A stretch of 64,000 nucleotides of DNA from Podarcis vaucheri (taxonomy: Eukaryota): the NCBI GenBank assembly GCA_965113315.1, contig OZ220367.1; one strand, given 5' to 3'. Shown piece after piece: positions 15,349 through 15,478 of this stretch. Position 1 is the stretch's first letter. Every line of letters begins with the position of its first letter. A model generated the notes under the pieces. It was not told the origin of the DNA, did no database searches, and saw nothing but the letters and a program-made list of their open reading frames with translations. A program made the translations under genes and the position numbers.

Positions 15349-15478
15349 GTACTGCTACGTCTTCACCTCATTCTGAACTTGAAAGCACAGGTGCTATCCT
15401 AGATGACAAAGAAGACTCATACTTTACTGAAATTCGTAATTTCATTGGGAATAGCAACCACAACAACTCAGAAGAAAG
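15349..15478 (+). CDS. MECOM: MECOM exon, 130 nt: (G)[42 protein letters not shown]
   Basis: TTTTCTGTTAAG acceptor, AG|GTAAGG donor; frame-compatible on both sides; matches the EVI1 post-ZF10 segment. Confidence 0.96.

Follow-up and report, generated by a model that had tools for sequence, protein, structure and literature searches.

An in-frame deletion in all squamates sampled removes a serine-proline site from the linker of EVI1 (MECOM)

Which phosphorylation input was lost, and in which lineage, when a 130-nt exon of MECOM in a Podarcis lizard came to lack five codons opposite residues S858 and S860 of human EVI1, a regulator of stem cells? The earlier note on this DNA, made from the sequence alone, took the loss to be that of an SQS motif phosphorylated by ATM. 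The exon was analysed here within a window of 64,000 nt, that is, the whole stretch of Podarcis vaucheri DNA under study (contig OZ220367.1 of assembly GCA_965113315.1), and was compared with MECOM proteins of other jawed vertebrates.

The accessible part of PMC6125627 gives the human peptide carrying S858/S860 and reports phosphorylation of S860 in unstressed cells, to which damage adds phosphorylation of S858; the latter is reduced by an ATM inhibitor. The AQA mutant used in the same study alters S858 and S860 together, and lowered replating even without damage. In the accessible part of the review PMC7985498, S858 is also assigned to CK2, a claim of Bard-Chapeau 2013. A proline, not a glutamine, follows S860, and no kinase for this serine is named in the accessible parts of these two papers.

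The MECOM exon and its splicing

By tblastn, the plus strand of the window was found to carry the 3′ exons of MECOM, and the 130-nt exon was placed directly after zinc finger 10 (Table 1). The zinc-finger blocks and the acidic tail occur in order, with best matches to MECOM and not to its paralogue PRDM16, indicating that the gene is the MECOM orthologue. Upstream exons taken from the genome assembly of the window match the MECOM protein of Podarcis muralis (100% over 454 aa), and both CtBP motifs, PFDLT and PLDLS, were found in an upstream exon. The 130-nt exon gave one match in this genome, and is thus single-copy.

Splicing was observed in one contig of X19, a run (RNA by guess) of a related organism, organism G, and not of the window's species. 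This contig is gap-free over the exon and joins 14094 to 15349, 15478 to 18681 and 18908 to 19314, all as GT..AG introns, in support of the donor after 15478 that the earlier note had called. No joint over the 130-nt exon was detected in X23 or X24, two raw RNA runs of which about 12% was read and which had almost no coverage, or in the X15 contigs. As a TAA is met directly past the donor, no in-frame donor further downstream can add residues, and no QSP-coding piece was found in the three plus-strand frames of the following intron.

Other features of the region were recorded. The segment 14822-14865 is a short intronic repeat fragment to which RNA reads align in their hundreds, together with many contigs that continue into unlike sequence; it is probably a common interspersed repeat. 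A pentanucleotide microsatellite lies at 15766-15840, in the intron after the 130-nt exon. Compared with skink and finch proteins, the window's lizard and Podarcis muralis both lack three residues in the acidic exon and have Ile instead of Tyr where the last exon (21258-21389) begins.

Table 1. Features around the shortened MECOM exon, in window coordinates
Feature	Position	Strand	Basis
MECOM upstream exon, zinc fingers 9-10	13922..14094, start approximate	+	tblastn; joint 14094>15349 in X19 contig
Splice acceptor AG	15347..15348	+	
MECOM exon, 130 nt, with squamate 15-nt in-frame deletion	15349..15478	+	sequence, tblastn, X19 contig
Codons of helix-like segment, intact here; nearly invariant in jawed vertebrates, PRDM16 similar	15420..15452	+	
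Two Asn codons (AAC AAC), deletion junction; five lost residues, with the counterpart of human S860-P861, lay between or just after them	15462..15467	+	
S-E-E-R codons retained past the junction; Ser now approximately at the slot of the lost S-P serine	15468..15478	+	
Splice donor GTAAGG; TAA at 15480-15482 on read-through	15479..15484	+	
Next exon, acidic domain; S-Q at 18724-18729	18681..18908	+	

Extent and origin of the deletion

The human protein P0372, which reads NSNHGSQSPRNVEER, is five residues longer than that of the lizard at the exon end, in agreement with the exon lengths of 145 nt and 130 nt that the earlier note gave. Protein searches and cluster look-ups, three of each, supplied the named MECOM proteins, large clusters being sampled by 15 of up to 2236 members; one protein per species was scored, and the species were grouped by clade. 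The short form, NHNNSEER or a variant of the same length, was found in all 38 squamate species (7 geckos, 3 skinks + cordylid, 5 lacertids + amphisbaenian, 1 monitor, 4 iguanians and 18 snakes), with S/T-P at the site in none of them. Each of the 108 non-squamate species, sharks and humans included, has S/T-P at this place, as T-P in one caecilian and as S-P otherwise. These comprise 20 turtles, 2 crocodilians, 16 chosen birds, 15 placentals, 12 marsupials, 17 amphibians and 2 lobe-finned, 17 ray-finned and 7 cartilaginous fishes. The placentals are boreoeutherians only, with no afrotherian or xenarthran; no tuatara, dibamid or monotreme protein was found among the cluster members and matches listed. 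One Hirundo protein (P0452) that has no copy of this exon was excluded, reducing 109 non-squamate rows to the 108 counted, and one Varanus model (P0140), unnamed Logan/ENA proteins and most birds were set aside. The Varanus komodoensis model P0140 leaves the exon early and enters unrelated sequence; two further models of this species are of the normal short form, which points to a probable annotation error in P0140.

A tree was constructed from 52 of the 84 full-length proteins with the linker left out. On it, a branch with SH-aLRT support of 100 parts the short-form proteins from all others. The presence of the short form in all sampled squamates and on one side of this branch suggests a derived deletion, inferred to have occurred once on the squamate (or lepidosaur) stem. 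The focal, derived, in-frame loss of 15 nt with its S-P site, as first described for this lizard, was supported, although as a character common to the squamates sampled and not as an event particular to the lizard's own lineage. The deletion may serve as a clean marker of the squamate or lepidosaur clade.

Turtles, crocodilians and birds carry an N-Q-S-P-R form that is five residues longer. Compared with turtles and birds, the block missing from squamates is N-Q-S-P-R (or Q-S-P-R-N) and not S-Q-S-P-R, the counterpart of residue 858 being Asn. Comparison of the proteins indicates that Asn codons flank the deleted block, with at least 2 shared bases at its ends. The event is best pictured as a single 15-nt deletion with breakpoints between two Asn codons, for which slippage or microhomology repair would be possible given the shared bases (microhomology of at least 2 nt). 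The AACCACAACAAC run, which had been taken to suggest slippage, encodes N-H-N-N, residues that turtles and birds share without the deletion, and by itself it is no scar of slippage.

That the short exon is an assembly error, or that an alternative donor restores the segment, has a vanishingly small probability. The splice support comes from a contig of a relative and not from reads of the window's organism, and this leaves such a reading its only room. Against it, the same length recurs in 38 species, the spliced contig of the relative is gap-free, the gap is internal to the exon, read-through stops directly and the plus-strand frames of the intron are devoid of QSP. On the length in 38 species, the X19 contig and the intron scan, we rejected an artefact of assembly, an alternative donor and a QSP piece hidden in the intron.

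The ATM serine and the downstream S-Q

At the positions of human 858-860, SQS was found in 13 of 15 placentals and in none of the 93 other non-squamates, and on the 52-row tree it was confined to the placental clade. The same position reads HQS in marsupials, NQS in turtles, birds, crocodilians and coelacanth, and KQS in most frogs. Since NNQSP is found in turtles, birds, coelacanth, bichir and sturgeon, Asn is likely ancestral at 858. This distribution suggests that the ATM serine S858 is likely a gain of placentals, not a loss of lizards, and that the squamate lineage likely never had it. With Asn ancestral at 858, only the S860-P861 half existed for squamates to lose. The statement that the missing segment carries S858/S860 and an SP site thus held in part: the block is the aligned counterpart of human 858-862 and the S-P was lost with it, but the residue at 858 was Asn. 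Marmoset (P0377) and tarsier (P0127) have GQS, in which Gly replaces S858, and the downstream S-Q is also absent from both.

The earlier note had concluded that DNA-damage control of EVI1 was lost or relocated in this lineage. Deletion of an ancestral ATM-SQS switch is in line with the alignment of the deleted block to human S858/S860, and with the description of the motif as conserved across species in the accessible part of PMC6125627. It is nevertheless highly improbable, because the absence of SQS from all 93 non-placental non-squamates would have to be explained by repeated independent losses, where a single gain on the placental branch suffices, and because marmoset and tarsier also do without SQS. 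Birds, turtles and amphibians are among the species without it, which is the outcome that the earlier note had named as refuting its reading.

As regards relocation, the VTSQNS segment pointed out in the next exon is indeed present in the window. Its S-Q was found in 34 of 38 squamates, which would suit a shift of ATM control to this site, and also in 20/20 turtles, 2/2 crocodilians, 16/16 birds and 12/15 placentals; it is missing from 4/38 squamates and 12/12 marsupials. As judged by sequence comparison, the downstream S-Q is ancestral and dispensable, and for this reason it is not a relocated ATM site. A whole-protein scan for S/T-Q sites common in squamates and rare elsewhere gave none. A transfer of ATM control to the next exon is accordingly very hard to credit, no less so than the loss of an ancestral switch.

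The lost serine-proline site and its known relatives

The conservation of the lost site was examined in a full-length alignment of 28 squamate and 56 non-squamate proteins. P861 was the only column, among 447 invariant in the 56 non-squamates, to be lost in 28/28 squamates; when other groups were left out in the same manner, turtles gave one conservative change (Ser to Thr) and birds, placentals, marsupials and amphibians none, such counts being sensitive to the choice of species and to branch length. All 56 non-squamates have five S/T-P dipeptides in common, of which squamates retain four (in 26-28 of 28), and this one in 0/28. Among 61 amniote proteins, two squamate-diagnostic indels were detected, the 15-nt deletion and a one-residue insertion. 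The insertion lies near human residue 363.

Neighbouring positions of the linker vary widely among species, and one-residue gaps were found in a frog, a caecilian and a wombat model, all with S-P retained. A constant S-P in a variable linker is the pattern of a putative short motif in a loose linker. Among squamates the short linker is almost unchanged. The AlphaFold model of a turtle protein, a low-confidence model with a mean pLDDT of 40, shows residues 852-959 without structure (pLDDT <50) and a low-confidence helix at the conserved segment preceding the linker, and the linker is thus predicted to be disordered. In squamates, PFDLT, PLDLS and S196 are each present in 28/28 and the S538 motif in 27/28, and the zinc fingers are intact. 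A proline of zinc finger 2 (L005:8089-8304) is kept in 54 of 56 non-squamates and is serine in 28/28 squamates.

Serines followed by proline are sites taken by proline-directed kinases of the CDK/MAPK/GSK3 class. We consider it highly probable that a deletion shared by all squamates sampled took an S-P from a linker predicted to be disordered, leaving EVI1 likely without one basal proline-directed phosphorylation input, and that the neighbouring ATM serine is a likely placental gain never present here. Loss of the site would have removed input from a kinase of this class, with a modest shift in the tuning of co-repressor association that would have been tolerated and fixed while the core function was kept. 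The intact core motifs and the persistence of the short form through the squamate radiation make it likely that the effect was modest, though the loss may weigh more than that, given the conservation in 108/108 species. Outside mammals, a role of the S-P site is suggested by its conservation, and phosphorylation there is putative.

A second S-P bears on this subject. In the accessible part of PMC7576810, human S436 (SPLQ motif) is a candidate site of CDK2/CDK3 affecting CtBP1 and DNMT3A. Mammals and most amphibians have S-P at the counterpart of S436-P437 (L003:4367-5728, upstream of the window). Turtles, crocodilians and birds have S-S there and 26 of 28 squamates have N-S, S-P being absent from all 28. 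On this comparison of sequences, a second CtBP1-tuning site is putatively lost among the sauropsids sampled. A co-loss of S436-P specific to squamates was ruled out, since the proline is missing in all of these sauropsids.

A new K-T-P was observed about 14 residues past the deleted S-P in 18/18 snakes (for example P0005, P0012 and P0302) and in 0/20 other squamates; the window's lizard has T-L codons (18712-18717) where snakes have T-P. It is improbable, even more so than the natural-knockout reading given below, that the site was rewired, such that the S-E-E serine in the old slot takes an acidophilic kinase input, that snakes regained a T-P, and that a distinct squamate regulation is under selection. 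The near constancy of the short linker, whose serine stands one residue off the old position, would fit such rewiring, as would the snake K-T-P and the absence of S436-P. However, S-E-E-R has no acidic residue at position +3, as the CK2 consensus requires, lizards do without the T-P, and S436-P is missing from turtles, crocodilians and birds as well.

Beyond the loss of one basal input, which we prefer, squamates could represent a natural knockout of an EVI1 phosphosite kept by every other jawed vertebrate, in which, together with the sauropsid loss of S436-P, both known CtBP1-tuning proline-directed sites are gone, placentals having built an ATM switch on the old S-P. In this full form the proposal is unlikely; if true, placentals, squamates and the remaining vertebrates would each have their own kind of EVI1 control in stress and in stem cells. 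Independently of this proposal, the distribution found here divides a motif described as a single conserved ATM site into an old half (S860-P861, in the jawed vertebrates sampled minus squamates) and a young half (S858, in placentals). By this distribution chicken, frog, fish, opossum and lizard, and likewise marmoset, are unsuitable models for the link between ATM and EVI1, and S860 alone is singled out as a site of interest. Within the literature outside subscription papers, no report was found that squamates carry the deletion or that S858 is restricted to placentals, and the deletion is a genuine, clade-wide and apparently unreported variant in a known gene.

Compared with the human SQS as given in the accessible part of PMC6125627, the squamate site lies in the same exon and linker, and the deleted block is the counterpart of 858-862; it differs in that Asn ancestrally occupied position 858, the ATM half being placental in our sample, and only S860-P861 was lost. 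Human S436, as described in the accessible part of PMC7576810, is likewise an S-P with a tuning effect on CtBP1 association that squamates do not have, but there the proline was substituted in all sauropsids sampled and the serine changed in most squamates, with no deletion. The paralogue PRDM16, as read from two bat proteins, resembles squamate MECOM in its helix-like segment ahead of the linker and in having no S-P in that place; it is a gene of its own, whose linker has diverged but is of full length, and the gene of the window is MECOM. Clade-diagnostic (signature) indels and the turnover of phosphosites in disordered regions are known phenomena. The squamate deletion is likewise a short in-frame deletion in a linker of low structure, fixed once and inherited by a clade; it differs from them in that the dipeptide is otherwise present in every species sampled, and such a loss is unusual for EVI1 (1 of 447 invariant columns).
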